Virus genome (UHGV): UHGV-1364441
Length of the DNA: 64,000 nt
Direction: 5' to 3' (one strand)
From: a virus
How positions within the stretch are numbered: position 1 is the stretch's first letter; each line of letters opens with the position of its first letter. Shown in pieces: positions 3,141 to 33,652 of the stretch. The translations under genes were made by a program, and so were the position numbers. The notes beneath the pieces were generated by a model. The model did not search any database. It was not told where the DNA came from and saw only the letters and a list, made by a program, of their open reading frames with translations.

Positions 3141-4802
3141 ATGAGTGAGGCAGAAGCCCGCCCGACTAACTTTATTCGTCAGATCATCGATGAAGATCTG
3201 GCAAGTGGTAAGCACACCACAGTACATACCCGTTTCCCGCCGGAACCGAATGGCTATCTGCATATTGGTCATGCGAAATCTATCTGCCTGAACTTCGGGA
3301 TCGCCCAGGACTATAAAGGCCAGTGCAACCTGCGTTTCGACGACACTAACCCGGTAAAAGAAGATATCGAGTACGTCGAGTCGATTAAAAACGACGTTGA
3401 ATGGTTAGGTTTTCACTGGTCTGGTAACGTCCGTTACTCCTCCGATTATTTTGATCAGCTCCACGCCTATGCTGTTGAACTGATCAACAAAGGCCTGGCG
3501 TATGTTGACGAACTGACGCCGGAACAGATCCGCGAATACCGCGGCACCCTGACGCAGCCGGGTAAAAACAGCCCGTACCGCGATCGCAGCGTTGAAGAGA
3601 ACCTGGCGCTGTTCGAAAAAATGCGTGCCGGTGGTTTTGAAGAAGGTAAAGCCTGCCTGCGTGCGAAAATCGACATGGCGTCGCCGTTTATCGTGATGCG
3701 CGATCCGGTGCTGTACCGCATTAAGTTTGCTGAACACCACCAGACTGGCAACAAGTGGTGCATCTACCCGATGTACGACTTCACCCACTGCATCAGCGAT
3801 GCGCTGGAAGGTATTACGCACTCTCTGTGTACGCTTGAGTTCCAGGACAACCGTCGCCTGTACGACTGGGTGCTGGACAACATCACCATTCCTGTTCACC
3901 CGCGCCAGTACGAATTCTCGCGCCTGAATCTGGAATACACTGTGATGTCCAAGCGTAAGCTGAACCTGCTGGTGACCGACAAGCACGTTGAAGGCTGGGA
4001 TGACCCGCGTATGCCGACCATTTCCGGTCTGCGTCGTCGTGGTTACACTGCGGCTTCTATTCGTGAGTTCTGCAAACGCATCGGCGTGACCAAGCAGGAC
4101 AACACCATTGAGATGGCGTCGCTGGAATCCTGCATCCGTGAAGATCTCAACGAAAATGCGCCGCGCGCAATGGCGGTTATCGATCCGGTGAAACTGGTCA
4201 TCGAAAACTATCAGGGAGAAGGCGAAATGGTCACCATGCCGAACCATCCAAACAAACCGGAAATGGGTAGCCGTCAGGTGCCGTTTAGCGGTGAGATTTG
4301 GATCGACCGCGCCGATTTCCGAGAAGAAGCTAACAAGCAGTACAAACGTCTGGTGCTGGGTAAAGAAGTGCGTCTGCGTAATGCTTACGTCATTAAGGCT
4401 GAACGCGTGGAGAAAGATGCCGAAGGCAATATCACCACCATCTTCTGTACTTATGACGCCGACACCTTAAGCAAAGATCCGGCAGATGGTCGTAAAGTGA
4501 AAGGCGTTATTCACTGGGTGAGCGCGGCACATGCGCTGCCGGTTGAAATCCGCCTGTACGATCGTCTGTTCAGCGTGCCGAACCCAGGTGCTGCTGATGA
4601 TTTCCTGTCGGTGATTAACCCGGAATCGCTGGTGATCAAACAGGGTTTTGCTGAACCGTCGCTGAAAGAAGCGGTAGCGGGTAAAGCATTCCAGTTTGAG
4701 CGTGAAGGTTATTTCTGCCTCGACAGCCGCCATTCTACGGCGGAAAAACCGGTATTTAACCGCACCGTTGGGCTGCGTGATACCTGGGCGAAGTTAGGTT
4801 AA
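3141..4802 (+). CDS. glnS: Glutaminyl-tRNA synthetase (class I aaRS), full length 553 aa
   Basis: HIGH motif (HIGHAKS), KMSKS-type motif (VMSKR), and end-to-end resemblance to enterobacterial GlnRS as I recall it. Confidence 0.95.
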
Positions 4803-4819
4803 TAGGTATTTCGCCACAT

Positions 4820-4853
4820 AAAAAAGTAAACGCCGCTACTGCGGCGTTTTTTA
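4820..4853. terminator. Bidirectional rho-independent terminator between glnS and the convergent Dam-like gene
   Basis: CGCCGC-TACT-GCGGCG hairpin flanked by an A-run upstream and T-run downstream. Confidence 0.7.
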
Positions 4854-5756
4854 CTTCATTATTGCAATTATATCGTTAGCAACTACACGTGTTGACGCCT
4901 TGCAGGACACCGACCGTCTGGCTGCCATATGATGTACTTTAAACCCGTTTCCTTCATATAGTTCACGGATGTTTGGCGCACCACTATTTGTTATCACTAC
5001 CTTAGCGCCGCGCTGGTGGGCTTCCACCAATAGAGATACCAGCCGTTTCTGTTCGTCGAAACGGAAGCTATTTCCTGAATAACTGGTAAACCCTTCTGTA
5101 TCCGGCAGCGGTTCATACGGCGGATCGCAAAAAATCACATCGCCTTCACCAGCCGCCTCGATGACGCCAGCAAAGTCACCTGATACAAAGGACGTGTTTT
5201 TGAGTACGTCATCAGCCAAAAATGCCTCCATCTCTGCATGTGGGAAGTAGGGCGCTTTGTATTTGCCATACCCCACGTTGAACTCGCCATTTTGGTTGTA
5301 CCGCGTTACGCCATTAAAACAGTGCCGATTAAGGTACAAAAAGGCGGCAGCATGATGTAGCTGGTCATACTTTCCTCTGTTAAATGCCTCACGCACTTCG
5401 AGGTAAGCGTCAGCGTTGTTGTAATTTTTGAAAAAACTATATGACAGCGTGACGAGCGAATGTCCTTCTCGCTGCAATGTCTGATAGAAGTTAATCAGGT
5501 CACCGTTAATATCATTAAGCAGGTTGTGGCGAAATCCTGCATTCGTAAATACGGAACCGCCACCAACGAATGGTTCTATTAACCGCTTACCGTGTGGTAG
5601 ATGCTCAAGCACTGTAGGCAATTCTGAGAATTTACCACCTACCCATTTGAATATCGGACGCTCATATTCATCCGGAGTCCGAATGGTGCGCATATAGCTA
5701 ATTTCAGCCATCGTATCCTGTTTTTCTATGGCTATGCGTGCTATAGATTTACTCAT
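4851..5756 (-). CDS. DNA N6-adenine methyltransferase (Dam/T4 Dam-like)
   Basis: FKWVGGK, EPFVGGGSV and DPPY motifs; ATG 5756 preceded by AAGGGGG RBS; overlaps the upstream gene stop by 8 nt. Confidence 0.8.
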   Translation of the reverse strand: MSKSIARIAIEKQDTMAEISYMRTIRTPDEYERPIFKWVGGKFSELPTVLEHLPHGKRLIEPFVGGGSVFTNAGFRHNLLNDINGDLINFYQTLQREGHSLVTLSYSFFKNYNNADAYLEVREAFNRGKYDQLHHAAAFLYLNRHCFNGVTRYNQNGEFNVGYGKYKAPYFPHAEMEAFLADDVLKNTSFVSGDFAGVIEAAGEGDVIFCDPPYEPLPDTEGFTSYSGNSFRFDEQKRLVSLLVEAHQRGAKVVITNSGAPNIRELYEGNGFKVHHMAARRSVSCKASTRVVANDIIAIMK

Positions 5757-6501
5757 AGAGCACCCCCTTATTCGCTTCGAAAACTGCCTTTGCGAATCCA
5801 TGTGGAGTAGCACTTCGAAAATTAGCCCTGTCAGGCCCTGGTGGCGCGGCATGGATTCTGTTATCTGGCTTGCCTAATGATTCGTCCATTAGGGCATCAG
5901 GCATGACAAAGCCCTGGCCGCTCCAGAGGCATGTTTTTTTGGTGTAGTTATCTTCCTGACAATATGCAGTGAAGAAGTAAGGGTGAAAGATGTGATCTGG
6001 CTTACGCCAGAATGTCGATATTTTGCTGACCGGATTTTCAATCATGTACGGACAACCGATCATCTTTGCAATGTCATAACACTGCCAGACAACCTGCATT
6101 GCTTTGAACTGGAAAACCGGATCTTTATTAGCCTTGTCCGAAAACCAGCGCGCGCCGGAAACAGCCAGGTCAGTACACGGTGGGAACCCGGCCAGAAACA
6201 CGATGCGCTGCAAATTCTTACGGAGAAAAGCGTATACTTCATCGCTATCGATGATCGCACTAATACGCGTCAGAACGGCACCTGATTGCATCCGCTCGTC
6301 ACTGGTCGATAAGTGCTGTGGATCGACGATAGCGGCATCGACACCGTATTCCAGCCAGGGGGCAACCATTGCCCCCGTAAAATCACAAAGACTCACAACA
6401 AGCGGTCGGTTATTATCGTTCTGCTTCACCGCCAATGGCCTCCACCAGCGCGTTAAACAGTGCAGATAATTCGCCCGTAAAGAGCACGAAATCAGCATCA
6501 A
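5749..6501 (-). CDS. DNA cytosine-C5 methyltransferase-like protein (compact, ~250 aa)
   Basis: AGFPPC (PCQ-like catalytic Cys motif) and ENP (ENV-like) motifs; much shorter than canonical Dcm, so function uncertain; 5' end overlaps the rdgC 3' end. Confidence 0.5.
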
Positions 6502-7318
6502 ATCGTTGTGCTACATCCTCCCGGTCGATATCGTCGTTCTGGTCATAGAGATCATCACAGAATGTCAGGGCTTTGATACTCATATCATCGTTGACTCTGA
6601 ACGACGCACGGTCCATCCAGTTAATTGCAACGGTCGTAGCTACTTTCCCCGCCTCAATGTGAGACATAATCTCGTCGGACTGTAGATCAACTTTGTTGCA
6701 GCGAACGGCACCACCATTATCGAGCAGACCCTTTAATGTGGCGTCTTCACCTGCTGTAAATCCGGCAGGGAAGCCGCTTTTAAACCACTCGGTCATTGTA
6801 ATCTCCAGCGGTTCGCGTGGTGTGAATGGAATGACAGGCAGGCTGCCGAGCGACTTTCGCAATAAAGCCAGCTGGTCCTCTGCCTTTTTGGCGCTGCTTG
6901 CCTCAACGAATACCAGATGGTTGCTGCGGTCGATCAGGATTTTGGCGAGTGATTTTCTCGTGAACGCGCGAGGCAAAAGTGAATGCAGGACTTCATCTTT
7001 AAGACTGTCTCTTTCCGTTTTCTTCAGCTTGCGGGCTTGCTCTTCTTCGAGTTTCAGGACTTTTTTCTGCAACTCTTCCTTGAGCACCTGCGAGGGGAGA
7101 ATTTTTTCTTCTCGCTTATGCTGTATTAGCAGAAAACCCTGGTATTCATGGGTGAGGTTGTCACCAAGAACAGGTGTCCAACCGACTTTAGCTGTGTCCT
7201 GAGAACCGCAAGGAGTAAACACGAATTTGCTAAGAGCATCGGATACTTCTGCGGCACTCCAGTTAACTTCACGTGAAAGACGATAGATGAAGATGTTTTT
7301 GAAAGCGACTGATCTCAT
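6413..7318 (-). CDS. rdgC: Recombination-associated protein RdgC homolog
   Basis: 301 aa with RdgC-like blocks along its length ([32 protein letters not shown]). Confidence 0.85.
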
Positions 7319-7324
7319 GTTTCA

Positions 7325-7368
7325 CCAATTATGTTAGAAAATTCTATTCAATTATCTAACATAATTGG
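7325..7368. promoter_or_regulatory. Palindromic operator-like site: perfect 14-bp inverted repeat CCAATTATGTTAGA (16-bp spacer), upstream of the rdgC operon
   Basis: Read directly; carries the TGTTAGA core that recurs across the window. Confidence 0.55.
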
Positions 7369-7377
7369 ATGTATTTT

Positions 7378-8031
7378 CTATCCCTTCTTGAAATCAAAGT
7401 TGCTTGCGATAGCCTGGAAGGTGCCTCCAGCCTTGAAATCAATATTTTCGTCGGCTGTCACAGTAATGTTTTTGCCATTAACGCTGATGTTATCGGCTGA
7501 TTTGACGTTAACACTCCCTCCCGCATTCACTACTACATCAGCCGGACCAATGATGTATATCTGCCCTGATTCATTCATTCCAATCCTTGAGCCTGCTGCC
7601 GTATTCGCTATTTCATATCCACCGCCAGCCGTTCGCACTTCGAGCACATTGTTGCGGTGAATCACGAAATCTTTTGTCGCCGAAAATTGCGGGCGGGGAG
7701 GCGCTCCGTCTACTTCTGGTGGCGTCCAGCCGCTACCATTGCCTGACGCCTCCGGCGCGACGTTTGGTACTCCGCCAGGCGCATCCTGAGCTGCGCCAAC
7801 TATCATTGGGCGTCTGGTATCAATTCGACCATTAACATCCAGATAAGGAAACTCTACCCATACCAGGTCGCCTTTTACTGTAGGTACAAACGCGTTACCT
7901 ATGGGTAACAGGTATTCTGCCCAGGGTAGATCGTCATCAGGAACGCCATTCCAGTCTGGTAAAACACGGACCTGAGCACGCATAAGCCCTGCCGGGTGCA
8001 CAGTTCCAACAATTTGCGCTCTACGCTTCAT
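7378..8031 (-). CDS. Baseplate central spike-like protein (gpV/gp5 OB-fold plus beta-helix type)
   Basis: N-terminal OB-fold-like region and C-terminal V-x-V-N-G/K repeats (SVNVKSADNISVNGKNITV); ATGA-coupled to upstream gene. Confidence 0.4.
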   Translation of the reverse strand: MKRRAQIVGTVHPAGLMRAQVRVLPDWNGVPDDDLPWAEYLLPIGNAFVPTVKGDLVWVEFPYLDVNGRIDTRRPMIVGAAQDAPGGVPNVAPEASGNGSGWTPPEVDGAPPRPQFSATKDFVIHRNNVLEVRTAGGGYEIANTAAGSRIGMNESGQIYIIGPADVVVNAGGSVNVKSADNISVNGKNITVTADENIDFKAGGTFQAIASNFDFKKG

Positions 8032-10567: not shown

Positions 10568-10873
10568 AAGCATCCTCAAAGGTCGATTTATCAGGTATCG
10601 AGGGGCATTGTCTGGAGATTGTGATTTCACATGAACAAGCTCAAGTTGCACTTGCACTTGCGCATGGTGAATTGGGTTACAATTCATCACAAAGCCATCT
10701 TTTATGCTACATTTGCATTTTTTTATTGTTATTATATCATTATTCGTGTCTTAGGCTGATTGTTGTACTATTGCTTGTTGCGAAGTGAATTTGTGCATAA
10801 GTAACCAGTTGAGTAGAGAGACACGTCGCTCAGAGCGTGGAAAGTATTGAGTGCAATAGAGAGATAATACAAA

Positions 10874-11074
10874 ATGAGGAAGATTCTTTTGACATCAGAG
10901 GTCAAGACCTTGCTACGCATCAAGTCTGATCGGACCCTGACGAAGATGATTAATAGAGGCGAGTTCCCCAAAGGATTCCGTATCGGGCTGCGTCGCATTG
11001 GCTGGTATGAAGACGAGGTGCTAGCTTGGTTGAAAGAGCGTGAGGAAGAAGCTCGTGGCGGAGAGATGTCATAA
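10874..11074 (+). CDS. AlpA-family small HTH regulator / excisionase-like protein
   Basis: 66 aa, EVKTLLRIKSDRTLTKMINRGEFPKGFRIGLRRIGWYEDEVLAWL matches the AlpA pattern. Confidence 0.7.
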   Translation: MRKILLTSEVKTLLRIKSDRTLTKMINRGEFPKGFRIGLRRIGWYEDEVLAWLKEREEEARGGEMS

Positions 11075-11131
11075 TCTCCAACCAGAAGAACTGGAATGAG
11101 TTCATCCCCGCCCAGAAGGGCGGGGATGACG

Positions 11132-12334
11132 TTAAGTTTTAGCATTGTTCTTCACATATTCCACAAACATCTTTTCTGCTTGTGCTGGTGGCGTGCCCGT
11201 CATGATAAGAGCATCAATAAACGCCTGCTTCTTCAGTGCGAACTGATCAGCAAGGCGTTGCTGAAGTTCCTTGTTTTTCTGTTTCTCTCGTTGCAAAGCT
11301 GCTTCTTTTGCCTCCGCCCGTTTTTTCTGTGCGTCTGACAACTTTCTGGCCCTGGTCAGTTGGTCACGTAGCTTGTCGATCTTGCCGTTGTCCTTTGCCA
11401 GTTTTGTACTTAAAGCGGTCTGGCGCTTCTGATAGAGCCTCCATTCGCGCTTGGCGGCGTCAACGTTCGTTTTACTGCTACGATTGCGATTAAACTCCTT
11501 CTCGTCTTCTTTTGAGAAGTGTTTGGTTGTACGGCGCCGATCGTCACCAAATGCAATTTGCGTTGCGGCCTTTTGTAACGCACGAGCAATACTCATTTGC
11601 CAACTGGCGGACTGTAACCGCGTCATTGAGTGGATCACGTGTTTACAGGCGACGCCTTGTAGCTTAGGGTTACGAACTTTTGGATAGGCGTATTCTTTTG
11701 GCGGGGCCAGGGCAAAGTTACCCGCAGTAGCAATGTAACGATACCAGTATTGATGACGACCACAGTCACAATCGAAAGACACTCGCCCGGCGCACAGTGA
11801 TTTAGTGATTTTGAGAGCTGATTTATCGTCTTCTGCGATGTCATCAACCATCTGATCCCATTCTTCAAAGCGTATACGGACGATATGGTGCTGGTGGACG
11901 GATATATCCGATGCTTCTACGCGGATATTAATCACATTGTGGCGAAGAGATACGGGTGTAGCTCTTTTGATACCAGATCCGTCATCCACGGCGTTATTTG
12001 CACGCTTAATATCGATTGCCTGGCTGGATGCCACCAGCTGGGCGTATGTGATGCCAGCCGTCTTGCTGTCATATTTTTCGCGCGTTTTACTCCGTAGCTT
12101 TTCGAAACCTTTCAGGTCGTCTCGCGTGAAGAACGTGCCGCCTTTTTTCTTCCCTAACTTGAGAATATCTTCGGCGGATTTGTTCCTCAGTCTACCTGGC
12201 GTCAGCGTCCGGTGAGCTTGTCGGCGCTTACGGGTTTGTTCTTTCCTGATAAGCTCGAATAAACGCGTGAAGTCCTTAGAGGACAGGCCGTCAGTGATAT
12301 AGCGCCCGTCCTGGTTTTTCAGGAAATCAGGCAT
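11132..12334 (-). CDS. SWIM zinc-finger protein with basic coiled-coil C-terminus
   Basis: CDCGRH...CKH (CxCx(n)CxH) motif; K/R/E/Q-rich tail. Confidence 0.55.
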   Translation of the reverse strand: MPDFLKNQDGRYITDGLSSKDFTRLFELIRKEQTRKRRQAHRTLTPGRLRNKSAEDILKLGKKKGGTFFTRDDLKGFEKLRSKTREKYDSKTAGITYAQLVASSQAIDIKRANNAVDDGSGIKRATPVSLRHNVINIRVEASDISVHQHHIVRIRFEEWDQMVDDIAEDDKSALKITKSLCAGRVSFDCDCGRHQYWYRYIATAGNFALAPPKEYAYPKVRNPKLQGVACKHVIHSMTRLQSASWQMSIARALQKAATQIAFGDDRRRTTKHFSKEDEKEFNRNRSSKTNVDAAKREWRLYQKRQTALSTKLAKDNGKIDKLRDQLTRARKLSDAQKKRAEAKEAALQREKQKNKELQQRLADQFALKKQAFIDALIMTGTPPAQAEKMFVEYVKNNAKT

Positions 12335-12656: not shown

Positions 12657-12747
12657 AACAAAGCTCCTCAGTCATAACCTGGGGAAACTTTATGGAGGAT
12701 GTGAAATGCGAGAAAGCAGCGTCACCAGGGCGGGTGACGCTGTGAAA

Positions 12748-13041
12748 TTAAGCGTGGAAAAATAACGGGCGGATATTTGGGCGAGCGGTTTGTGAAGCGA
12801 CCCAAAGCTCATACTGGGATTGCATACCAGTCCACATCTCGGCACTGGTTCCCAGAGCAGATTCCAGACGAAGCGCCATATCAGCAGAAATCCCTGCTTT
12901 CTCGTTCAGAATCCGAGAAAGCGCCGTGCGAGTAATGCCTAATGCGGCAGCTGCATCTGTGACTGATATGTCTCCCAGATACTCACGAAGAACCGCGCCA
13001 GGATGCGCGGGATTATGCATACGACTCATAGTGTTCCTCAA
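12748..13041 (-). CDS. higA: HigA-like HTH antitoxin
   Basis: XRE-type HTH ([22 protein letters not shown]); ATGA overlap with the toxin gene stop. Confidence 0.75.
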
Positions 13042-13319
13042 TGATAATCCTGATAGTCAACAAGAATTGCGTCTTCGCCTTCAAATCGGAAGGTAAGTCG
13101 CCAGTTACCGTTTACTGATATTGCCCAGTGACCTTTAAGGTCTGCCCCCTTTAGTGGGTGCAATTCCCATCCCGGCGCAGACATATCGTCCGGGCGTTTA
13201 GCTGCATTAAGAGCAGTCAATTGAATGCGTAGCTTAATCGCATGTTTAGCTTGAATGCCTGCTGTTGATCCTGTCTTGAAAAATCGTTCAAGCCCTTTAT
13301 GGCGAAATGACTTAATCAA
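13038..13319 (-). CDS. higB: HigB-like toxin (RelE/ParE superfamily)
   Basis: (M)[13 protein letters not shown] ... HPLKGD ... YQDYH; start proposed at in-frame TTG 13319 giving 93 aa. Confidence 0.7.
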
Positions 13320-13655
13320 AATAACTTCATCCGTGCCTGTATCCTGTGTATACACAGTACACACGGAGAGGGCAAAGTGCAAGCACTATTCGGATGAACA
13401 GAGTTAGTTCGTTGTTCTGGAATTTATTGATTGTCAACAAGTGACTTTCATTAAACTTAAGGCATGGACCAGCTCGATAGTGAGCTGGTTGTTATCTACA
13501 GATCGAAGGGATTCGACAAGATGAATACTTTTAATAAGCTGATTGATTTATTGAATAAATTCATTAGCGCCTCTTTAACTAAGCAGGTGTCCACGTCAGT
13601 GTTTTTGTTACTCTTCTACCTGGTATTGCGGGAGTTAACAAAGCTACTGATGTGA

Positions 13656-16156: not shown

Positions 16157-16177
16157 AAAATGTTAGAAAATTAATTC
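16157..16177 (+). promoter_or_regulatory. Operator-like motif AAAATGTTAGAAAATTAATT overlapping the Ref-like gene stop
   Basis: Instance of the recurrent TGTTAGAAA motif. Confidence 0.5.
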
Positions 16178-20535: not shown

Positions 20536-20574
20536 AAATGTGTTAGAACATTGATTTTAGTTTTCTAACATATT
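20536..20574. promoter_or_regulatory. Operator-like inverted pair TGTTAGA-N16-TCTAACA between the phosphatase and DUF968-like genes
   Basis: Read directly. Confidence 0.5.
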
Positions 20575-21608: not shown

Positions 21609-21624
21609 TGAGGTGGATCAAAAA

Positions 21625-22314
21625 ATGAAAGAACGCGGGATGATTTTTAACGATGAGATGGTCAGGGCCATCCTCGAAGGAGGGAAGACGCAGACTCGCC
21701 GACCTGTAAAAAATGTCAGGGCCGATAACTGCCTGGTTATCCGTAAACCGACAAAGAAACGCAATGGTGTCTATACCCACGTTATGGATGCACCTGAACA
21801 TGGTTTATGCCCGTTCGGTAACGTTGGTGATCGCATATGGGTCCGTGAGGCGTGGGCGATATTAGGCAATGAGGATGGTTGCAGTGTGGACTGGAACGAC
21901 AACCTTTGTCGTGGCGATGAGAAGAACGCAGCAAGGATTTATCGGGCCAGTTGTGAGCAAAAGCCGGGTGATTACGGCTTGTGGTCGATACCCGATGATG
22001 CCGACTGGAAACCTCACACTGTGAATGAAAAATTTGATGGCGGGTGGTGTCCATCAATTCACATGCCGCGCTGGGCATCGCGCATTCTTCTGGAAATTAC
22101 CAACGTGCGCGTTGAGCGGTTGAACGATATCAGCGAATGCGATGCAAGGGCTGAGGGCGCACCAACAGAATCGACCCTCATTGGCGATAAGCATTACCCA
22201 AGTTTCCGTAGCCTATGGAAATCAATTTATGGCGAAGATAGTTGGAACGCTAATCCCTGGGTGTGGGTAATCGAGTTTAAGCGTATTCAGGGGGCAACCA
22301 GTGAGCAAAATTAA
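21625..22314 (+). CDS. Conserved prophage hypothetical protein
   Basis: EMVRAILEGGKTQTRR N-terminal pattern; ATG 21625 with GAGGTGGA RBS. Confidence 0.5.
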   Translation: MKERGMIFNDEMVRAILEGGKTQTRRPVKNVRADNCLVIRKPTKKRNGVYTHVMDAPEHGLCPFGNVGDRIWVREAWAILGNEDGCSVDWNDNLCRGDEKNAARIYRASCEQKPGDYGLWSIPDDADWKPHTVNEKFDGGWCPSIHMPRWASRILLEITNVRVERLNDISECDARAEGAPTESTLIGDKHYPSFRSLWKSIYGEDSWNANPWVWVIEFKRIQGATSEQN

Positions 22315-22999
22315 CTATCAAGAACTGCGCGAGGCGGCGGAACAGGCAACGCAAGATGAATGGGTAGCATATATTTTGCCGGGTCATAACGGCATTTATC
22401 CTGCGCGCACGTCTGAGGGTAGGCATTGCGGATACTTTATTGACTGGCCTGGCATTGATGGACAAAGGAATGCTGGTGCTAATGCCCGTTATATCGCGGC
22501 CATCCCACCAAAAGTTGCGCTGGCACTCCTGGGCGAAATTAAGCGCCTGGAGGACACAAATATTGATGCTATGTGCCGAATAGCACCGCTTGAGACTAAG
22601 CTCGCGGCTCTGGTGGCAGAGAACGCCGGGCTGAAACTCGCAATGGCTGTAACTCTTGATCATGTGTCGGTCACGGATGCAGGGCAGGCCGGAGTTGCTG
22701 CAATGATTATCAACGATGCTCTGCACCACAGCGAAACCCCAGCCACCGATGCTTTTCTGGCTGAAGGGAAGACTGAAGCACGCAAGGAAGGCGCTTATTT
22801 TGTGGCGAACAGAATGTTGGCAGCCTGGAAAGCTGGTTTTATTGATGATACTGCGAAGAACGCTGCGGATATTGCCCGGATGATCCTTACCTCTACTGAG
22901 TTTATGACTAATGCGCCGGAAAGCCATTTTGATCGCTCATTCTCTGATGGCGTTCTCGAAGATATCGCCGAACAGCTTCGTAAAGGAGTCATCCAATGA
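22301..22999 (+). CDS. Ea22-like prophage protein (paralog 1)
   Basis: N-terminus MSKINYQELREAAEQATQDEW; coiled-coil middle. Confidence 0.5.
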   Translation: MSKINYQELREAAEQATQDEWVAYILPGHNGIYPARTSEGRHCGYFIDWPGIDGQRNAGANARYIAAIPPKVALALLGEIKRLEDTNIDAMCRIAPLETKLAALVAENAGLKLAMAVTLDHVSVTDAGQAGVAAMIINDALHHSETPATDAFLAEGKTEARKEGAYFVANRMLAAWKAGFIDDTAKNAADIARMILTSTEFMTNAPESHFDRSFSDGVLEDIAEQLRKGVIQ

Positions 23000-23499
23000 G
23001 CAAGATTGACTATCAGGCACTGCGTGAGGCGGCAGAGAAAGCAACGTGGGGAGACTGGGACTCATATAAACCACACCGTGGCGCACGTGGTTATGAGGTC
23101 CGACTAAGTAGTCAGGCCATCGCGCAACACGTTCTGAAAAACAACGCTGAATTTATTGCTGCCTTTAATCCAAAGATTGCATTGGCACTACTGGATGAAC
23201 GGGAAAGGAACCAGCAATACATCAAATCCCGCGACCAGGAGAACGAGGATATTGCGCTAACGGTAGGGAAGCTGCGCGAGAAGCTGGAAGCCGCAGAGAA
23301 GCGCATTGCAGAGTTAGAAAGTGGTTCTCAGGCACAAAAGTTAGTTGAAGCAATCATTGTTGCGATAGAAAACGAACAGGAAAGGCTTTTTGATGAAGAT
23401 TACCTAATGGATTCGAAAGAATGCATTGACGTAATTCGTGAAGAAGTAAAGCGATGGAATGATTCCCGTGCCGCTGGCATTCGCATCAAAGGAGAGTGA
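22996..23499 (+). CDS. Ea22-like prophage protein (paralog 2)
   Basis: N-terminus MSKIDYQALREAAEKATWGDW, nearly identical to paralog 1. Confidence 0.5.
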   Translation: MSKIDYQALREAAEKATWGDWDSYKPHRGARGYEVRLSSQAIAQHVLKNNAEFIAAFNPKIALALLDERERNQQYIKSRDQENEDIALTVGKLREKLEAAEKRIAELESGSQAQKLVEAIIVAIENEQERLFDEDYLMDSKECIDVIREEVKRWNDSRAAGIRIKGE

Positions 23500-23500
23500 T

Positions 23501-23695
23501 ATGGCAACCAACAACCGTAAAGCAAAGATTCTGTTAGTTCGTAGAAACGCTCCTGGCGTCTGGCAGTGGGTGAGACTCAGCAACCGACGGATGGGGTTGA
23601 TGAAATATTACGGGATGATGGATTGTGGTTTTTGCAAAAAGCCCAGCGCGGCGCAAAACCGCTGGAAAAACCATTTGCGCACTAAAGGAGAGTGA
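23501..23695 (+). CDS. Small hypothetical protein (64 aa)
   Basis: ATG preceded by AAAGGAGAGTGAT RBS block that is duplicated at 23697. Confidence 0.35.
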   Translation: MATNNRKAKILLVRRNAPGVWQWVRLSNRRMGLMKYYGMMDCGFCKKPSAAQNRWKNHLRTKGE

Positions 23696-23696
23696 T

Positions 23697-23906
23697 ATGG
23701 CTATTGCCGCAAGTTACACCATGCATCTCTATTGTGACTGCCGCCAGTGTACGGAAGGTGTATATCCAGTGCCAGACTTCGGTGAATATATCGGTACGTC
23801 ATGGGCTGGCTGTGCAAAAGAGGCACGTAAGGATGGCTGGCGAATAAGCAAAGACAAAACACGTGCTTTTGCGCCCGGGCATAAAGTTTTGAGGATTAAC
23901 AAATGA
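23697..23906 (+). CDS. Small Cys-rich protein (69 aa)
   Basis: CDCRQC ... C motif; same duplicated RBS block upstream. Confidence 0.4.
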   Translation: MAIAASYTMHLYCDCRQCTEGVYPVPDFGEYIGTSWAGCAKEARKDGWRISKDKTRAFAPGHKVLRINK

Positions 23907-24592
23907 CCACTTTAACCGACAAAGAACTGATTAAAGAAATCAAAGAGCGTATCAGCAGCCTGGACGTTCGAGACAATATTGAACGCCGGGCTTATGAAAT
24001 TGCACTGGCATCGCTGGAAGCAGATCCAGTTGCTTATATTTTCAAACATCCGGCCGGGAAATTATTCTGGGCTTTAACGGATGAAAGCAATAAAGAGCAA
24101 CCGGACGTTATTCCTGTTTATGCTGCCGCGCCTGCGTCGGTTGTGCCGGATAATGCATCAGAGCCTCTTGCTTATGCTTACAAAGAGCTTACGCCTGAGA
24201 TTATGCGCAACCAGGCTGCCGAATCCAATCGCGGTAATGAGTGGACCGGCAATCCTGATATTGATAACGCCATCATCATGCTCGACCGCATAGATACGCT
24301 GGAAAATTGCGATGATGACCGTATTGAGGCTGTTAAGGCTGTTTTGCGTAGACTGGCTGGCAACTCTCCGGTAACTCCGGATGGTTGGATAAGCTGTAGT
24401 GAGCGAATGCCGGATAGCAAAACAGCCGTTCTTGTTGCCAGGGAGTTTGACAGGAAAGGTGACTGGCGAATGAAATGGGCGACTTACATCCCGGGGCATC
24501 CTGACGCTAATGATGGGTGGATAATTCCAGGTGCGTCGTGGATACCATCACACTGGATGCCGCTACCAGAACCGCCGCAGGAGGCGAAATGA
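23903..24592 (+). CDS. DUF551-like prophage protein
   Basis: C-terminal W...HWMPLPEPP pattern. Confidence 0.5.
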   Translation: MTTLTDKELIKEIKERISSLDVRDNIERRAYEIALASLEADPVAYIFKHPAGKLFWALTDESNKEQPDVIPVYAAAPASVVPDNASEPLAYAYKELTPEIMRNQAAESNRGNEWTGNPDIDNAIIMLDRIDTLENCDDDRIEAVKAVLRRLAGNSPVTPDGWISCSERMPDSKTAVLVAREFDRKGDWRMKWATYIPGHPDANDGWIIPGASWIPSHWMPLPEPPQEAK

Positions 24593-24849
24593 TGGATGTA
24601 AAAGAGAAGGTTTTGCAGGTGATGCGTTCCCGGGCTGCCCTGCAAGATAAAGCTCTCGGCGGGGAATATCCATTCAGGATGGCAACCTGGAATTTGCGGT
24701 TGGCAATGGAGAAGGAATTTCCTGATGAAGAATGGCGCTCGGCAGATTTGCGCAAAATTCTTATGGAGCTGGCTAAAGACGGAACAGTATCCAAAGATAC
24801 CCATGCCAGCCGGATTGGTCAGGCGGTATGGAGACTGGAGGTGAGGTAA
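24589..24849 (+). CDS. Hypothetical protein (86 aa)
   Basis: ATGA-coupled start. Confidence 0.4.
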   Translation: MMDVKEKVLQVMRSRAALQDKALGGEYPFRMATWNLRLAMEKEFPDEEWRSADLRKILMELAKDGTVSKDTHASRIGQAVWRLEVR

Positions 24850-25130
24850 TGGCTAACCTGCAACTTGCCGTCAAAGGTGAATACTTCGATGACATGATTC
24901 GCGGGGAGAAAACGGAAGAGTATCGCCTGTGTAATGGCTACTGGAATAAGCGAATCATGTTCCGGGAATATGACCGCCTGATTATCACAAAGGGATATCC
25001 GAAGCGCGACGATTCCAGTCGCAGAATAGACGTCCCGTATAACGGATATGAAATCAAGACAATCACACATCCGCACTTCGGTGATAAACCGGTAAAGGTG
25101 TACGCGATAAAGGTGAATATCAATGGCTAA
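24849..25130 (+). CDS. Hypothetical protein (93 aa)
   Basis: TAATG-coupled start at MANLQLAVKGE. Confidence 0.4.
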   Translation: MANLQLAVKGEYFDDMIRGEKTEEYRLCNGYWNKRIMFREYDRLIITKGYPKRDDSSRRIDVPYNGYEIKTITHPHFGDKPVKVYAIKVNING

Positions 25131-25575
25131 ATTTCAAAGAGCTATTATTTTTCTGGCTATGTTATCAGCCAGTCATTTATCCCACGCGTCAGTTATTGCC
25201 GCTGGAGCGGCGGCAACAGCGGCGGCAACAGCGGCGGCAACAGCAGCGGCAACAGCAGCGACCACGGCGGCAGTAAATGCTTCTATCGCCAGCGAGCAAG
25301 CGCGGCGTGCTGCAACCAATGCTTCCGCAAACACCACCACGGTATCAGTCACACAATCAAAACCGAATATAGGCTTTGTTACTTGCGGAAAGAGGAATAG
25401 CGAAATGGTTGGTTCTCTTGGTTGTGTAATGTGGCAAGAGGACGATAGACCTGAAATCCCGTGGAACTCATGGCCTGGTTACATTCTTGGTAAGAAGATA
25501 CCCACCAGCTATGAAGTAAATGCTATTTCATTCGACCAATATAACGGTGTTGCAACGGTGTATTTTCTGTATTAA
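25123..25575 (+). CDS. Secreted protein with Ala/Thr repeat (AAAT)n
   Basis: Signal peptide then AAATAAATAAATAAAT encoded by a 12-bp tandem repeat. Confidence 0.5.
   Translation: MAKFQRAIIFLAMLSASHLSHASVIAAGAAATAAATAAATAAATAATTAAVNASIASEQARRAATNASANTTTVSVTQSKPNIGFVTCGKRNSEMVGSLGCVMWQEDDRPEIPWNSWPGYILGKKIPTSYEVNAISFDQYNGVATVYFLY
25207..25260 (+). repeat. Tandem 12-bp repeat GCGGCGGCAACA x3 plus GCAGCGGCAACA and a partial unit
   Basis: Read directly inside the 25123-25575 CDS. Confidence 0.7.
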
Positions 25576-25587
25576 CACGGAGTAATT

Positions 25588-25881
25588 ATGTGGCGTGGTA
25601 ATAGTCATGGCAGAAGCCAGATGATACTTACCGAATATACGTTAGACCACAAAACCAATAAATCACGCTCAGTATATTTGCTTCGGCACAATAGCCGCGT
25701 AAGGAATACCGTGCTGGAGCAAAATCTGACCGTTGAAATGGATAATTTTGGGAACTTCAAGCCAACAATAGCGCTTGATGATTTTCCGCGTGGTTTAAGC
25801 GAAAGAGAAGCAATGCTTAAATTAGCAGAATGGCTACAGAGATTAAGTATTGCTATTGAAGATAACTGGAGCAATCCGTAA
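25588..25881 (+). CDS. Hypothetical protein (97 aa)
   Basis: ORF with downstream coupled small ORF. Confidence 0.4.
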   Translation: MWRGNSHGRSQMILTEYTLDHKTNKSRSVYLLRHNSRVRNTVLEQNLTVEMDNFGNFKPTIALDDFPRGLSEREAMLKLAEWLQRLSIAIEDNWSNP

Positions 25882-26039
25882 TGAAAAATAAAAAGTTTTG
25901 GTCTACGTTTTTATTTGTCTGTGTTTGTGGCTTTTTTGTTGCTTTAGCTGGTGGCGTAGAATGGGGAACGGAGAACTGCGGCGTAATGGTTGGTGACACC
26001 TTATTACTCGCGGGCATGTTAGCTTTTATTCGTTCATGA
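25881..26039 (+). CDS. Small membrane protein, 52 aa (MKNKKFWSTFLFVCVCGFFVALAGG...), not in ORF track
   Basis: Own translation; TAATG overlap with upstream stop. Confidence 0.35.
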   Translation: MKNKKFWSTFLFVCVCGFFVALAGGVEWGTENCGVMVGDTLLLAGMLAFIRS

Positions 26040-26121
26040 GAAAGATTCAAACCACCAGCAATATTATTACCCCTGTCGTTACGGCAGGGGGCTGCAACAC
26101 TGTGTAATTGAGTAATTTTAT

Positions 26122-26496
26122 ATGATGACATTCAAACATTTTCTTGACCGTCCATTATGGGCGGCAGCCGCAGGCTATGACTTTAATTATATGGATTGCA
26201 TGTCTTATACCGCCAATGCATACGACCATTCCTTCAGTCTGCTGTTTAATTCTTTAAGAATATTGCCGCAAACAGAAGTTGGAGAGCTTCATTTATGGCT
26301 ATTGGGCTTTATCGCGGCTGGAGTTGGTATTGCTGTATGGCCTTTTATTTTCTGGCTGGTGGCTGTTGTAGTGTGGTTTAAGTGCAAGGCATACCGGAAT
26401 AAGTATTTCTTAGGTGATGGAATGACTGATATTGCCAAAAGGAACATTGAAAATTGGACCAAAGAATGCGAAAAGAAATGGAGCAACAAGAAATGA
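26122..26496 (+). CDS. Membrane protein
   Basis: Hydrophobic segment LHLWLLGFIAAGVGIAVWPFIFWLVAVVVWF. Confidence 0.45.
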   Translation: MMTFKHFLDRPLWAAAAGYDFNYMDCMSYTANAYDHSFSLLFNSLRILPQTEVGELHLWLLGFIAAGVGIAVWPFIFWLVAVVVWFKCKAYRNKYFLGDGMTDIAKRNIENWTKECEKKWSNKK

Positions 26497-27209
26497 CCAG
26501 AATCACTAAATTGCGCATATCAGAGATTATTGCACGCATCGAAATGTATGGACACGGTGCTGGATATACGGCAGATGAGGTGTTGGAGCTTGCCAAAATA
26601 GCGTTAGCAACCTGCAAGGATGGTGAAACCATAAAGCTGATTGACTTGTTGGTGCAGGAGCTGCCAAAGCGTGGAGGGTGGCCTGATGATGTGCTCGATT
26701 GTCGCATGGTTAGAGAGGACGAGTATGAACCATCATATGGCCTCTTTGCTTTTGGCTCTGACCCAGCAAAAAGCCTGCGAGGACGCCATTTTTGCCTTGA
26801 GGTCAGACTCCCGATAAGTAACCTTGATCGTGAGGAATACACGGAAATAATTTCGCGCAAACAATACGAAGAGGCTCTAGAAGCATCCAGTAAGTTAAAT
26901 TTTGAGCAATGGCTGGAACAGCAACGCGGGAAAATCGATGTGGACTGTGGTTGTGTGTCCACTGAAACATTCATGCACTGGCTGCGGGTAGCTTACGAGG
27001 CTGGCAACCATCCGGATTTTCCGGATAGTTCCCAACAATCGCCCAAGAAAAGCGTAAAAACCACTCTGGAAAGAGGCTATCTTGAGGCCGCATTAAAGAT
27101 TAAGCCGGGCCATACGCTAGGCGTCATTGATGCCATGTTGGTTCATGAAATGGCGAAGGCTTTATTGCCGCTGGTGGCTGATAAAATTCCGAATAAAGCC
27201 GATATCTGA
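26493..27209 (+). CDS. Hypothetical protein (238 aa)
   Basis: ATGA-coupled start at MTRITKLRI. Confidence 0.5.
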   Translation: MTRITKLRISEIIARIEMYGHGAGYTADEVLELAKIALATCKDGETIKLIDLLVQELPKRGGWPDDVLDCRMVREDEYEPSYGLFAFGSDPAKSLRGRHFCLEVRLPISNLDREEYTEIISRKQYEEALEASSKLNFEQWLEQQRGKIDVDCGCVSTETFMHWLRVAYEAGNHPDFPDSSQQSPKKSVKTTLERGYLEAALKIKPGHTLGVIDAMLVHEMAKALLPLVADKIPNKADI

Positions 27210-27248
27210 TCACCATGCTAAAATCCCCTCAATTCACAGAGGGGATTT

Positions 27249-27521
27249 TTGTATATGTTGCATAGAGTTTTATGGAAAAGCGTTATTGTCGGCGCGATCT
27301 TGGCTATGTCTGGGTGTGCTATGGTGCAATACAATGACGGAGAAAAGGTTAGCATCCAGTCAGATGGTTGGTATGGCCTGGATAGCCTGCAAAAAACAGC
27401 GGATAAAGCCTGCCAGCAATACGGAAAGTCTAAAGCCGTATATCAGCATAGTGCTAACGCTAATCCTCATCTTGCGCCCGGAACAGGCGTTCAGAATACC
27501 ATCTGGAAATGTGAGCCTTAA
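27249..27521 (+). CDS. Small lipoprotein
   Basis: Signal peptide with lipobox-like LAMSGC. Confidence 0.5.
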
Positions 27522-27523
27522 AT

Positions 27524-27775
27524 ATGAGCGACTGGAATATTGCAGCTAAAAGTCAGGAAGAACGGGATAAGGTTAACGTTGATCTGGCTGCCAGCGGTGT
27601 GGCGTACAAAGAGCGATTGAACATACCTGTCATAGCTGAACAGGTAGCCCGCGAGCAACCAGAGAATCTGCGCACCTATTTCATGGAACGGCTACGGCAC
27701 TACCGGCAGTTAAGCCTCCAGTTGCCAAAAGGGAGCGATCCGGTGTATCAGAACGAGGATGCACCAAAAAAATAA
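27524..27775 (+). CDS. Hypothetical protein (83 aa)
   Basis: ORF directly after the lipoprotein gene. Confidence 0.4.
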
Positions 27776-27860
27776 CGGCAAGATGGGGGAGAAATGTGAT
27801 TAGCCCCCAGCGTGGCGCGCCTACAAACCCAGCTTTCACAAACTATGCCTTTTCAATGTA

Positions 27861-27898: not shown

Positions 27899-28288
27899 AT
27901 GGGCTTCCCTTCTCCTGCGGCGGATTATGCAGAGAGCCGCATTTCTCTTGATCAGCAACTAATCAGACATCCTTCCGCGACCTACTTCATGCGGGCGGCA
28001 GACAGCCATCACCGTGAGGGAATATTGCAAGGTGCTTTGCTGGTGGTTGATTCCTCACTTACTCCGGTTGATGGTTCACTGCTTATATGCGCTATGGAGG
28101 GTGAATATCGCATAAAGAGATACAGGAAATATCCGCGCCAGCACCTGGAGGATTTAAGCACCGGGAAGAAAGAGGCGTTACCAGTAGATGACGATGGATG
28201 CACGGGCAGTAATGCTGTTTTTGGTGTGATCACTTATGTCATTAATGATGCCAGAAGTGGGGAGTTTGATTATAGACCTGTGATTTAA
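27899..28288 (+). CDS. humD: UmuD'-like protein (P1 HumD type, S24 LexA/UmuD fold)
   Basis: FPSPAADY ... SATYF ... LLVVDS ... EYRIKR pattern parallel to UmuD without the N-terminal cleaved tail. Confidence 0.7.
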   Translation: MGFPSPAADYAESRISLDQQLIRHPSATYFMRAADSHHREGILQGALLVVDSSLTPVDGSLLICAMEGEYRIKRYRKYPRQHLEDLSTGKKEALPVDDDGCTGSNAVFGVITYVINDARSGEFDYRPVI

Positions 28289-28333
28289 GGCGCATAAAGA
28301 AGCCCGCCAGACCAGGCGGGCTTTTTGTTGATA

Positions 28334-29428
28334 TCATTCAATGATTTTTTCGGCTGTCAGCCAGCTAATTTCATGCCTGTCTTTCGGCGGTTTTAGCATG
28401 TGAGCATATTCAGCGACATGCTCCCACGGAATTGTTTTTGCCCACTCAACGATAGCATTGTGATCTGCAGTGAAGAGTGGAATAGTGTGCGATTTCAACC
28501 ATTCTAATGTCGTGACGCCATGTTTTTTGGCGTGGTGCTGCGCATGATGCCGGGCTATCACTCGTAATGGCATTGTCCATTCACTACCATCAGGCATCGA
28601 AAAGCGCATTGTCTTCGGCATATCTGATTCAAGAACAGCCTCCCTAATACCAGGGAACTCACCAAGAATCATACGACGATAGTCATCACTATTTCGCCCG
28701 CCATACCTTTCGGCAAAATGATCAAGATATTCTTGGGTAATAAATGGTGAATCCTCCGCACTCAGCTTAATGGCTTTATATACACCACTCGTATTATCTT
28801 CAGCTAAAGCACGTCCATGATGTGAATCATAAAAAAAGCCTATTTCCTCTGGTGACGGAATTGAAGTGAGCAATATGCGTGAATCACCACTAGTCATGCT
28901 TGCCCACACAATGCTGTATGCCCGATCGCTGATATGTGCGGAATCCACAATAATGAATAAAAGATGGTCGGCGTAGTGACCTGCAATGCTATCTTCATAG
29001 TTAAGGCGGTAGTTACAAAAGCACATTCCCCAAAATTCATTGAACATCAGACCGCTATCACCGACCTTAAAATACTCAATGATAAAAGGTTGTTTTTTCA
29101 GCAATGCCTCCCAACATTGCCACACATATGCAACAATTCCTCTTTTGCAAGCATTTGATTTTGGATAAACAATTACTGTCCGGGAATCAGGATACATAAT
29201 CGTATAAAGGGTACTAATAACAGCAAGCACTTGCGGTCGTCCGATCCCATACGGAGTGGTGACAGTAGCTTTTGCATTATTGGGCTGTATAGCTTCAACA
29301 ATTTGTTGTTGCTGGTGGCTTAAATCAATATCAAACAATTCTTTTGCTGCCAGTACCCAATTGTCTTTATATTTCTCCACCAGCGACAGCCAGCGCGGAT
29401 CTTTATAAATATTGCTCTTAGTCGCCAT
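28334..29428 (-). CDS. Terminase-large-subunit paralog with degenerate ATPase motifs
   Basis: Resembles the PacB-like protein at 34728-36236 (shared FYDSHH block), but Walker A is TTPYGIGRPQV (no GKS/T) and Walker B is IIVDSAH. Confidence 0.55.
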   Translation of the reverse strand: MATKSNIYKDPRWLSLVEKYKDNWVLAAKELFDIDLSHQQQQIVEAIQPNNAKATVTTPYGIGRPQVLAVISTLYTIMYPDSRTVIVYPKSNACKRGIVAYVWQCWEALLKKQPFIIEYFKVGDSGLMFNEFWGMCFCNYRLNYEDSIAGHYADHLLFIIVDSAHISDRAYSIVWASMTSGDSRILLTSIPSPEEIGFFYDSHHGRALAEDNTSGVYKAIKLSAEDSPFITQEYLDHFAERYGGRNSDDYRRMILGEFPGIREAVLESDMPKTMRFSMPDGSEWTMPLRVIARHHAQHHAKKHGVTTLEWLKSHTIPLFTADHNAIVEWAKTIPWEHVAEYAHMLKPPKDRHEISWLTAEKIIE

Positions 29429-30185
29429 CTGCCACTTCCTTAACTTCTTCTTTGGCCTGTTCTGCAATCGCCGCACGGCATTTCGCCCTGGCTGTAGCGA
29501 TTGCTTCAGCTCGCACATCGTCTGGAATCGTTGACGTGATATACATATCCAGTTCTTCGGCACGGAATACTGTTTGGTCCAGATATTCGCGTAGCATCCA
29601 GGTAAATTCGAAATCACACGCGATAATCTCTGCGCTACCTTCTGCACCATTTGGGAAATGAATAAATGCCTGTTTAGCCAAACCGATAACACGACATGCG
29701 GTTGCCAAAACAGCGACAACCAGGTTTACATTTTCACACGCTACGGGCTGATTAACGCCGGAGATTACTCCATTTAACTGTCGGTTATATGGAAGGTAGT
29801 TTGAGATGCGTTCTACGCGCCATGTGCCAGTCAGGCTGCCATTTTTAAATATAATTGGTGTAACGGATAGCCCAAGCTCGCGTATAAGTCGTTGCGCTAT
29901 AGCAGGATCATTAAACAGGTCTAATGCTACACATTCGAAAGACTGCGCAAGGGCAAACAGTTCTTCCAGAGAGTAGTCTTTGCCCCTGGCGGTGATGTAA
30001 CGACGAACGCCGCTGTCTGCATCACTCCATATAGCTACGCCATGCTCTTCATTCAGCTCTTCATTAAAGCCGAGATACGTCATGATAGTGCGTTCAATCG
30101 TGTCAAACGGCAGTGACATGTCGGCGTTAACAGCCACCAGCAGGCCATTACGCAAGCGGTATTGAATTGTTTTAGTGCTTTCCAT
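29418..30185 (-). CDS. Hypothetical protein (255 aa)
   Basis: Stop overlaps the start of the terminase paralog. Confidence 0.5.
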   Translation of the reverse strand: MESTKTIQYRLRNGLLVAVNADMSLPFDTIERTIMTYLGFNEELNEEHGVAIWSDADSGVRRYITARGKDYSLEELFALAQSFECVALDLFNDPAIAQRLIRELGLSVTPIIFKNGSLTGTWRVERISNYLPYNRQLNGVISGVNQPVACENVNLVVAVLATACRVIGLAKQAFIHFPNGAEGSAEIIACDFEFTWMLREYLDQTVFRAEELDMYITSTIPDDVRAEAIATARAKCRAAIAEQAKEEVKEVADGD

Positions 30186-32177: not shown

Positions 32178-32232
32178 AGCACCCTCCTAAATAGGCGAGG
32201 GTACTTTACAGCAAAGGCGTTAATCTAAAAAG

Positions 32233-33463: not shown

Positions 33464-33634
33464 GAAATTTAGGAATTTTTTTTCTTTCCGCGCAGATGGG
33501 CAATGCATTGCTGGTGTGGGCTTTAAGTTATGCCTGGCAGTTTTTAAGCAGAATTTTCTAAATTGGATGATAAAAAAATGCATCTTGATCCTTTACTCAC
33601 CCTGTTATTCGGCATAGATTTGTCATAGTAATTT

Positions 33635-33652
33635 TATGTTAGAAAACTAAAT
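33635..33652 (+). promoter_or_regulatory. Operator-like motif TATGTTAGAAAACTAAAT about 15 bp upstream of the 33665 start
   Basis: Instance of the recurrent motif. Confidence 0.45.

Follow-up and report, generated by a model that had tools for sequence, protein, structure and literature searches.

The locus at positions 4851–7380 of the virus genome UHGV-1364441, analysed here as a window of 64,000 nucleotides (nt), raises the question of how the two DNA methyltransferase functions that phage P1 carries in the single protein Dmt come to lie in two overlapping genes, and of what controls them. A preliminary description of this DNA, made from the letters alone, had read the locus as an operon of an rdgC gene, a C5-methyltransferase-like gene and a Dam-like gene under a palindromic operator. 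The answer that we regard as likely is that 4851–7380 is one minus-strand early operon under the control of a C1-type repressor, whose products are RdgC, a small C5 enzyme and Dam, and that the second of these, a protein of 226 amino acids (aa), is a standalone C5-cytosine methyltransferase of the family of the phage K42 Dcm enzyme, almost without a target-recognition domain. The identities of the genes and the fold of the protein were established by the comparisons given below, as were the conserved gene junctions and the dispersed occurrence of the operator motif.

A D6-like element and the layout of its operon

The window represents a D6-like phage-plasmid of the P1 family. Its segment 4700–7700 corresponds over the full length to Escherichia phage D6 (MF356679.1) with 95.6% DNA identity, and the whole window is collinear with that genome, starting at D6 position 56784, crossing the origin of the circular record and ending at 32199, with about 82% of the window alignable. 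D6 is a P1-family plasmid prophage, and MF356679.1 is its reference record (Gilcrease & Casjens 2018). In this record the three genes are annotated as RdgC family (orf65), "putative DNA-cytosine methylase" (orf64) and Dam (orf63). The operon is thus already known, parallels the classic operon of P1 and is routine for genome annotation. The regions 10635–11148, 12715–13594, 21610–27803 and 28280–29445 of the window showed no alignment to D6, and presumably are variable cargo of the element.

All three genes run in the same direction on the minus strand, as had been described; rdgC occupies 6413–7318, the C5-like open reading frame (ORF) ends at 5749 and dam ends at 4851. The rdgC (hrdC) homologue encodes 301 aa and has a weak Shine-Dalgarno sequence, GGTGA (7326–7322), which overlaps the end of the inverted repeat discussed below. 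For the C5-like gene, a product of about 250 aa had been given, with an overlap of about 85 nt with the rdgC 3' end if the first ATG were used. That ORF is merely the maximal reading frame (TTG at 6501, first ATG at 6498). The start is GTG 6429, because this codon is the one annotated in D6, is conserved among the related loci and agrees with the N-termini of the homologues. It stands 9 nt after GGAGG (6443–6439), and both the codon and the GGAGG are kept in all 26 related loci, including five with a different gene in the slot. The gene therefore extends over 5749–6429, its product has 226 aa and the real overlap with rdgC is 17 nt. The dam gene (4851–5756) starts at ATG 5756, 6 nt after GGGGG (5767–5763), and encodes 301 aa, as against 333 aa in the maximal ORF. 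Its start shares 8 nt with the stop of the C5-like gene (ATGAGTAA at 5756–5749), just as the preliminary description had it. Since the cistrons overlap (by 17 and 8 nt) and each has a Shine-Dalgarno sequence of its own, the three are probably translationally coupled.

Two unrelated C5 modules in one slot

Is the middle gene the C5 half of a Dmt-like protein that has come apart? P1 Dmt does join a C5 and a Dam module, a PF00145 domain being followed by a PF02086 domain. The idea that these same modules are separated here, however, did not survive alignment to P1 Dmt; the 226-aa protein has no similarity to its C5 half (BLASTP E = 2.9), and a "split Dmt" origin of the middle gene was rejected in favour of a different, standalone family.

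A sample of 26 loci encoding close relatives of RdgC was compared. In 21 of these D6-like loci the small C5-like gene is followed by a separate dam, and in the other five (L010, L013, L018, L023 and L025, at about 3890–6500) a P1-type canonical C5 domain is fused in frame to Dam. Both versions of the slot start at one and the same GTG, and because this codon lies within the 3' end of rdgC, both begin with MKQN; at the other side, Dam homology resumes at Dam residue 5. The exchange junctions in the five fusion loci are accordingly the rdgC stop codon and Dam residue 5, and the slot is therefore a sharply bounded cassette for either of two unrelated C5 modules. The N-terminal extension of about 35 aa in the standalone Dam of the window is accounted for by its match to the inter-domain linker of P1 Dmt. 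The common slot and the common GTG argue that the small gene and the canonical module may be functionally equivalent. The overlapping stop and start of the small gene and dam persist in a lineage in which the junction has a different sequence, GTGGCTGA. A frameshift had been considered at the junctions, but the same junctions in 21 independent loci, together with five true fusions, mean that the split is no frameshift artefact; these sequences exclude a frameshift from sequencing. The small standalone C5 enzyme and the canonical C5-Dam fusion thus take each other's place at identical junctions, and this cassette polymorphism may prove useful.

The small C5-methyltransferase-like protein

The catalytic AGFPPC and ENP motifs listed in the preliminary description are present, as LAGFPPC (with the Cys85 codon at 6177–6175) and ENP (6039–6031), and the scant space that it saw for a target-recognition domain is confirmed, about 40 residues being left between KK and the C-terminal motif. 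The putative catalytic residues are Cys85 and Glu131, and Lys164 and Lys165 are the counterparts of the predicted substrate-binding residues of the K42 enzyme. In canonical C5 enzymes, motifs VIII and X are separated by a larger region that holds the target-recognition domain and motif IX; in the window protein K165 and T208 are only about 40 residues apart, and this region is essentially lacking. The protein was linked to the C5-methyltransferases by structure comparison alone, in which it has the fold of the C5 catalytic domain. We could not find any Pfam match at E ≤ 0.01, including PF00145, or any NCBIfam match at E ≤ 0.1, and a profile of 24 family sequences run against all PDB sequences returned noise only (E at least 0.7), with no solved methyltransferase. 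The protein matches PHROG 757, "DNA methyltransferase", at 3.4e-78.

The family is large, with at least 7924 relatives in 90%-identity clusters and 1592 representatives at 50% identity, mostly of 205–260 aa. Matches occur in 1580 phage records, including those of Drexlerviridae, Kagunavirus, rV5-like, T4-like, Klebsiella and Campylobacter phages. An alignment of 24 close relatives has 60 invariant columns; D36, D61, FPPC(T), ENP, KK and R-x-N-x-RS-x-TP-x-GF are invariant or nearly so, and the motif IV Pro-Cys, as FPPC (C85), and motif VI, as ENP (E131), are invariant in all 24. Three relatives, P0006, P0007 and P0121 (the last a natural 563-aa fusion of the small C5-like domain to Dam), have insertions of at least 27 aa in the gap between KK and the C-terminal motif, that is, at the position where a canonical target-recognition domain would lie. 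A literature search on methyltransferases without a target-recognition domain returned nothing on this small Dcm-like family, which is under-described, being widespread (about 1600 clusters at 50% identity) and without a curated Pfam or NCBIfam model.

Some members are found in other settings. In Cronobacter lambdoid prophages (L033–L035, 5001–5690) the small gene lies between ninB and ninE/ninF and overlaps the ninB stop, and the nin region is a different, recurrent genomic niche of the family. P0262 (532 aa) contains the C-terminal third of the family alone, joined to an unrelated N-terminus. P0004 (305 aa, from a single contig of 1 kilobase) runs from the C-terminus of RdgC into the small methyltransferase by way of the alternative frame, probably owing to an indel or assembly error.

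One relative has been studied experimentally. In phage K42, which is KarlJaspers-like (Drexlerviridae), a "Dcm" gene of 711 bp was identified as the trigger of retron Ec86; 5-methylcytosine (5mC) was detected in the multicopy single-stranded DNA (msDNA) by mass spectrometry coupled to liquid chromatography (LC-MS), with a CCWGG site implicated, the enzyme was modelled on DNMT3A and inactivated by the combined changes C82A, E128A, K175A and K176A, and it was reported to be active when expressed alone from a plasmid (bioRxiv 10.1101/2023.08.16.553469). The window protein is 37% identical (E = 3e-41) to the annotated homologue of phage FritzSarasin, in which C103, E149, K196 and K197, after subtraction of the 21-aa offset of the annotated start, equal C82, E128, K175 and K176 of K42. 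Through this homologue the four K42 residues map to C85, E131, K164 and K165 of the window protein, which therefore belongs to an experimentally supported family of small C5-methyltransferases. The segment after KK differs, and the CCWGG specificity of K42 is for this reason not transferable. As one member of the family activates retron Ec86, carriage of the gene may influence the evasion of restriction as well as the sensitivity to defences that sense methylation.

We offer only tentatively a more specific idea, that the 226-aa enzyme would be a minimal C5 methyltransferase consisting of the catalytic domain only, with recognition placed on a loop of about 35 residues, a specificity that is short, relaxed or other than CCWGG, and a cassette interchangeable with the C5-Dam fusion. 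If this is true, the minimal enzyme would act broadly against restriction and would be likely to trigger defences that sense methylation, retron Ec86 among them.

RdgC and Dam

The assignments of the two flanking genes, to rdgC and to a Dam-like enzyme, were both borne out by curated models. The first product matches PF04381 at 5e-103 (344.9 bits, cutoff 25, profile positions 3–298 of 298), NCBIfam NF001462 with 381 bits (cutoff 330) and, over residues 5–301, the solved structure of E. coli RdgC (2owl) at 1.4e-110, and is 51% identical to P1 HrdC. Judged by this homology, it presumably modulates RecA-dependent recombination, as a ring-shaped dimer that would bind DNA and restrain RecA. The third product matches PF02086 at 1.6e-56 (192 bits, cutoff 22) and TIGR00571 with 249 bits (cutoff 114.85), contains FCDPPYEP, with the DPPY catalytic motif, and FVGGGS, and is 69% identical to residues 478–753 of P1 Dmt, the C-terminal half. 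As this Dam half of Dmt is annotated as methylating GATC, the window Dam is predicted to have the same specificity. The densest GATC cluster of the window, with 5 sites in 170 nt, lies at 37151–37320 in the 5' part of a pacA homologue; it recalls the Dam-methylation-dependent pac site of P1, though it is weaker than the P1 cluster.

The inverted repeat and the putative operator

What, then, controls the operon? A perfect 14-bp palindrome had been placed at 7325–7368. Perfect 14-nt arms do exist there (7325–7338 and 7355–7368), but they do not form a continuous palindrome; the feature is an inverted repeat with 19-nt arms (7325–7343 and 7350–7368), one mismatch and a 6-nt loop, and is the strongest short-range inverted repeat in the window. 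Its proposed role as an operator is plausible, since a 14-nt site contained in the arms recurs in intergenic DNA where P1 has C1 operators.

The 14-mer of the preliminary description, CCAATTATGTTAGA, had 8 matches in the window against 5.9 expected, no more than chance. A dispersed motif emerged only after re-centring on the conserved inner core, ATTTTCTAACAYAA. With up to three mismatches this core occurs 24 times in the window, where 12.2 occurrences would be expected and no shuffle out of 100 gave as many; with up to two mismatches it has 16 sites. In the complete D6 genome, 12 of the 14 sites with up to two mismatches are intergenic, although intergenic DNA makes up 10.5% of the genome; half-sites lie upstream of c1, lpa, repL, ref/orf88, cre, orf52, simB and pmgS. 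Single half-sites of the window are at 16158, 16817, 32233, 33634, 38065, 41785, 43191, 44235, 54127 and 55325, several of them preceded by TTA, and map onto D6 upstream of ref/orf88, cre, c1, lpa, pmgS and repL. One of these (33634–33647) is 18 nt upstream of a gene for a putative C1-type repressor of 345 aa (33665–34702, plus strand), the presumed trans-acting partner of the operator, collinear with D6 orf1, 'prophage repressor, similar to P1 C1'. In P1, C1 operators are found at c1, repL and dmt, the uhr-hrdC-dmt operon being under the C1 operator Odmt (Op68) over Pdmt, and also at lpa, ref and cre. Given its recurrence in front of c1, lpa, repL, ref and cre, ATTTTCTAACAYAA would most likely be the operator of the D6-type C1 repressor.

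In the inverted repeat the core is present twice, as ATTATCTAACATAA on the plus strand (7351–7364; one mismatch; D6 equivalent 64135–64148) and as ATTTTCTAACATAA on the minus strand (7329–7342; exact; D6 equivalent 64113–64126). The former overlaps, and the latter is downstream of, the -10 hexamer of a sigma-70-like promoter candidate that was predicted by a consensus scan on the minus strand at 7351–7380 (-35 TAGAAA, 7380–7375; 18-nt spacer; -10 GATAAT, 7356–7351). Among 15 sequence variants of the region GATAAT is invariant, and even the one with a decayed repeat has kept it. D6 has inverted pairs with an identical offset of 22 nt before rdgC and between ppp and pdcB (80706–80741); the latter corresponds to a second pair in the window at 20538–20573, which is without extended complementary outer arms. 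The most economical reading of the repeat would therefore be a bivalent operator covering the -10 hexamer and the transcription start region. ATTTTCTAACAYAA is thereby a testable candidate operator consensus, with two bivalent sites of fixed geometry, for phage-plasmids of the D6 type, a common kind in E. coli and Salmonella.

Two other functions of the region were considered and rejected. A P1 late (Lpa-dependent) promoter consists of a -10 hexamer and a 9-bp element at -22, and no element resembling A(A/G)(G/T)T(G/T)ACT(A/T) was seen by inspection of 7319–7377. An intrinsic terminator was not reported by the scan, and the AT-rich stem is followed by TGAAACATG, without a T-run.

Several observations weigh against the operon as interpreted here. 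The putative repressor of the window is only 20% identical to P1 C1 (pairwise, over 239 aa, E = 6e-8, a weak similarity). The P1 operator consensus ATTGCTCTAATAAATTT has no match in the window at up to three mismatches, so the element is without P1-type sites; in an alignment made by hand the half-site shares only 11 of 17 positions with that consensus, TCTAA core included, and the geometry of the bivalent site is unlike that of the bivalent operators of P1. Agreement of this degree would be in keeping with a repressor that is related but differs in operator specificity, and we take D6 and P1 to be heteroimmune. The -35 element (TAGAAA, with an 18-nt spacer) is poor and includes the stop codon of the upstream gene. 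For the small protein, the lack of a PF00145 match and of a sequence-level match to any solved structure counts on the same side, as do the low identity to the FritzSarasin homologue of K42 Dcm and the different putative specificity loop. Finally, the outer five pairs of the repeat covary, and this is not required by a pure protein-operator model.

Alternative explanations

The last of these points leads to the possibility that the inverted repeat acts mainly or additionally as an RNA hairpin, which in read-through transcripts from the tail genes would control translation, processing or stability. Such a hairpin would fold 6 nt before the rdgC start and partly cover the Shine-Dalgarno sequence, the last two bases of the stem lying within GGTGA; as RNA, the 91-nt region has a predicted stable fold of -24.4 kcal/mol (z = -4.5), which none of 200 shuffles equalled. 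Among the 15 sequence variants of the repeat region the inner 13 pairs are nearly invariant, and the outer five change on both sides together. Compensatory changes affect 6 of the 18 pairs, in 22 cells, a number reached by none of 500 shuffles, and sliding the partner columns lowers pairing from 92% to about 45%; one lineage has wholly different yet complementary outer arms, GCAAAACTG...CAGTTTTGC. However, the invariant core of the arms is the dispersed operator half-site that occurs singly at many other promoters, and the hairpin would be present in read-through transcripts alone, because the predicted -10 hexamer is inside the left arm and the operon's own transcript, from the embedded promoter, would lack that arm. 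The stem is AU-rich and has no T-run, and hence is no terminator. In quasi-palindromes, moreover, correction by template switching can yield covariation without selection. The complementarity of the outer arms would be due either to a second role as a hairpin or to upkeep by such template switching, and we regard a mainly or additionally RNA-based function as doubtful.

Other alternatives concern the small enzyme. That it would have no DNA recognition of its own and work only as the partner of the adjacent Dam, as a split bifunctional enzyme, is suggested by the 8-nt gene overlap in all loci of the small type (including the lineage with the different junction sequence), by the natural fusion P0121 and by the C5-Dam fusion in the slot of the sister loci. 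Close homologues nevertheless stand alone, without an adjoining Dam gene, in the nin regions of lambdoid prophages and in Drexlerviridae genomes, so Dam is not an obligatory partner, and an obligatory partnership was rejected; with the K42 enzyme active from a plasmid on its own, we consider the whole idea improbable. Still less credit can be given to the transfer of a non-methyl group (for example, carboxymethyl from carboxy-S-adenosylmethionine (Cx-SAM), as in CmoX) or to action on a substrate other than double-stranded DNA, seeing that 5mC was what LC-MS detected for the K42 homologue, that no hypermodification genes lie beside the gene here and that the other top structural matches are ordinary methyltransferases. 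The middle ORF might finally be a degenerate remnant, or it might have arisen from a Dmt-like fusion gene through a frameshift or an error in sequencing; it is short, has no Pfam or NCBIfam match, and one public contig (P0004) shows a frame fusion from rdgC to the C5-like gene. This is effectively refuted by junctions that recur in the D6 reference as well as in 21 independent loci, by the 60 invariant columns and the very large wider family, by the intactness of all catalytic motifs, and by the missing similarity to the C5 half of P1 Dmt.

Proposed mechanism and neighbouring features

For repressor binding, promoter use, enzymatic activities and methylation specificities, we infer the following scheme under a C1-controlled early operon. 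The sigma-70-type promoter with its -10 hexamer GATAAT would sit within a bivalent operator of two inverted 14-nt C1-type sites. With the repressor lying over the -10 hexamer and the start region, the operon would be silent in the lysogen; induction or infection would lead to its transcription, giving the RdgC/HrdC homologue, the 226-aa C5 methyltransferase and the Dam-type GATC adenine methyltransferase. Both methylases would modify the replicating phage DNA and so protect it from restriction, and Dam may, by analogy with P1, license cleavage at the pac site.

Downstream of the operon, a gene for a full-length glutaminyl-tRNA synthetase, glnS (3141–4802, plus strand), converges on dam, as it does in D6, where it is annotated as orf62. 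Between the two, the hairpin and terminator scan found a GC-rich hairpin with T-runs on both strands (4828–4849), which is probably a bidirectional terminator common to dam and the phage-borne glnS.

Comparison with known systems

The closest system is that of D6 itself, whose orf65-orf64-orf63 have the identical genes, order and overlaps, with a homologue of the gene 5 baseplate protein upstream and the convergent glnS downstream, and whose small methyltransferase is 99.6% identical to the window protein. The arms of the inverted repeat differ at two positions per side, in a compensatory manner, and the GenBank record of D6 carries no annotated regulatory features.

With the canonical PF00145 C5-methyltransferases (M.HhaI and Dcm) and the catalytic domain of DNMT3A/B, the small protein shares the Rossmann-type catalytic fold, the motif IV Pro-Cys, the motif VI Glu-Asn-x and a C-terminal helix resembling motif X. 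It differs from them in that the small domain (target-recognition domain and motif IX) is essentially absent, and that motif I is CDFTG, not FxGxG, with no match to the Pfam model. K42 Dcm is of the same DNMT3-like family of about 230 aa, with little or no target-recognition domain, and its mutated Cys, Glu and Lys-Lys are conserved in the window protein; the segment between KK and the C-terminal motif, the would-be site of target recognition, is unlike in the two.

The P1 operon, Odmt(Op68)-Pdmt-uhr-hrdC-dmt, is likewise C1-repressed and has an RdgC homologue (51%) followed by C5 and Dam functions (69% for Dam). However, it has an extra first gene, uhr, in P1 alone; its single operator lies over the -35 element, whereas in the window an inverted pair spans the -10 hexamer and start region; its C5 module, fused to Dam, is a canonical PF00145 domain without sequence relation to the small protein; and it is placed after upfC on the P1 map, instead of after gene 5 as in the window.

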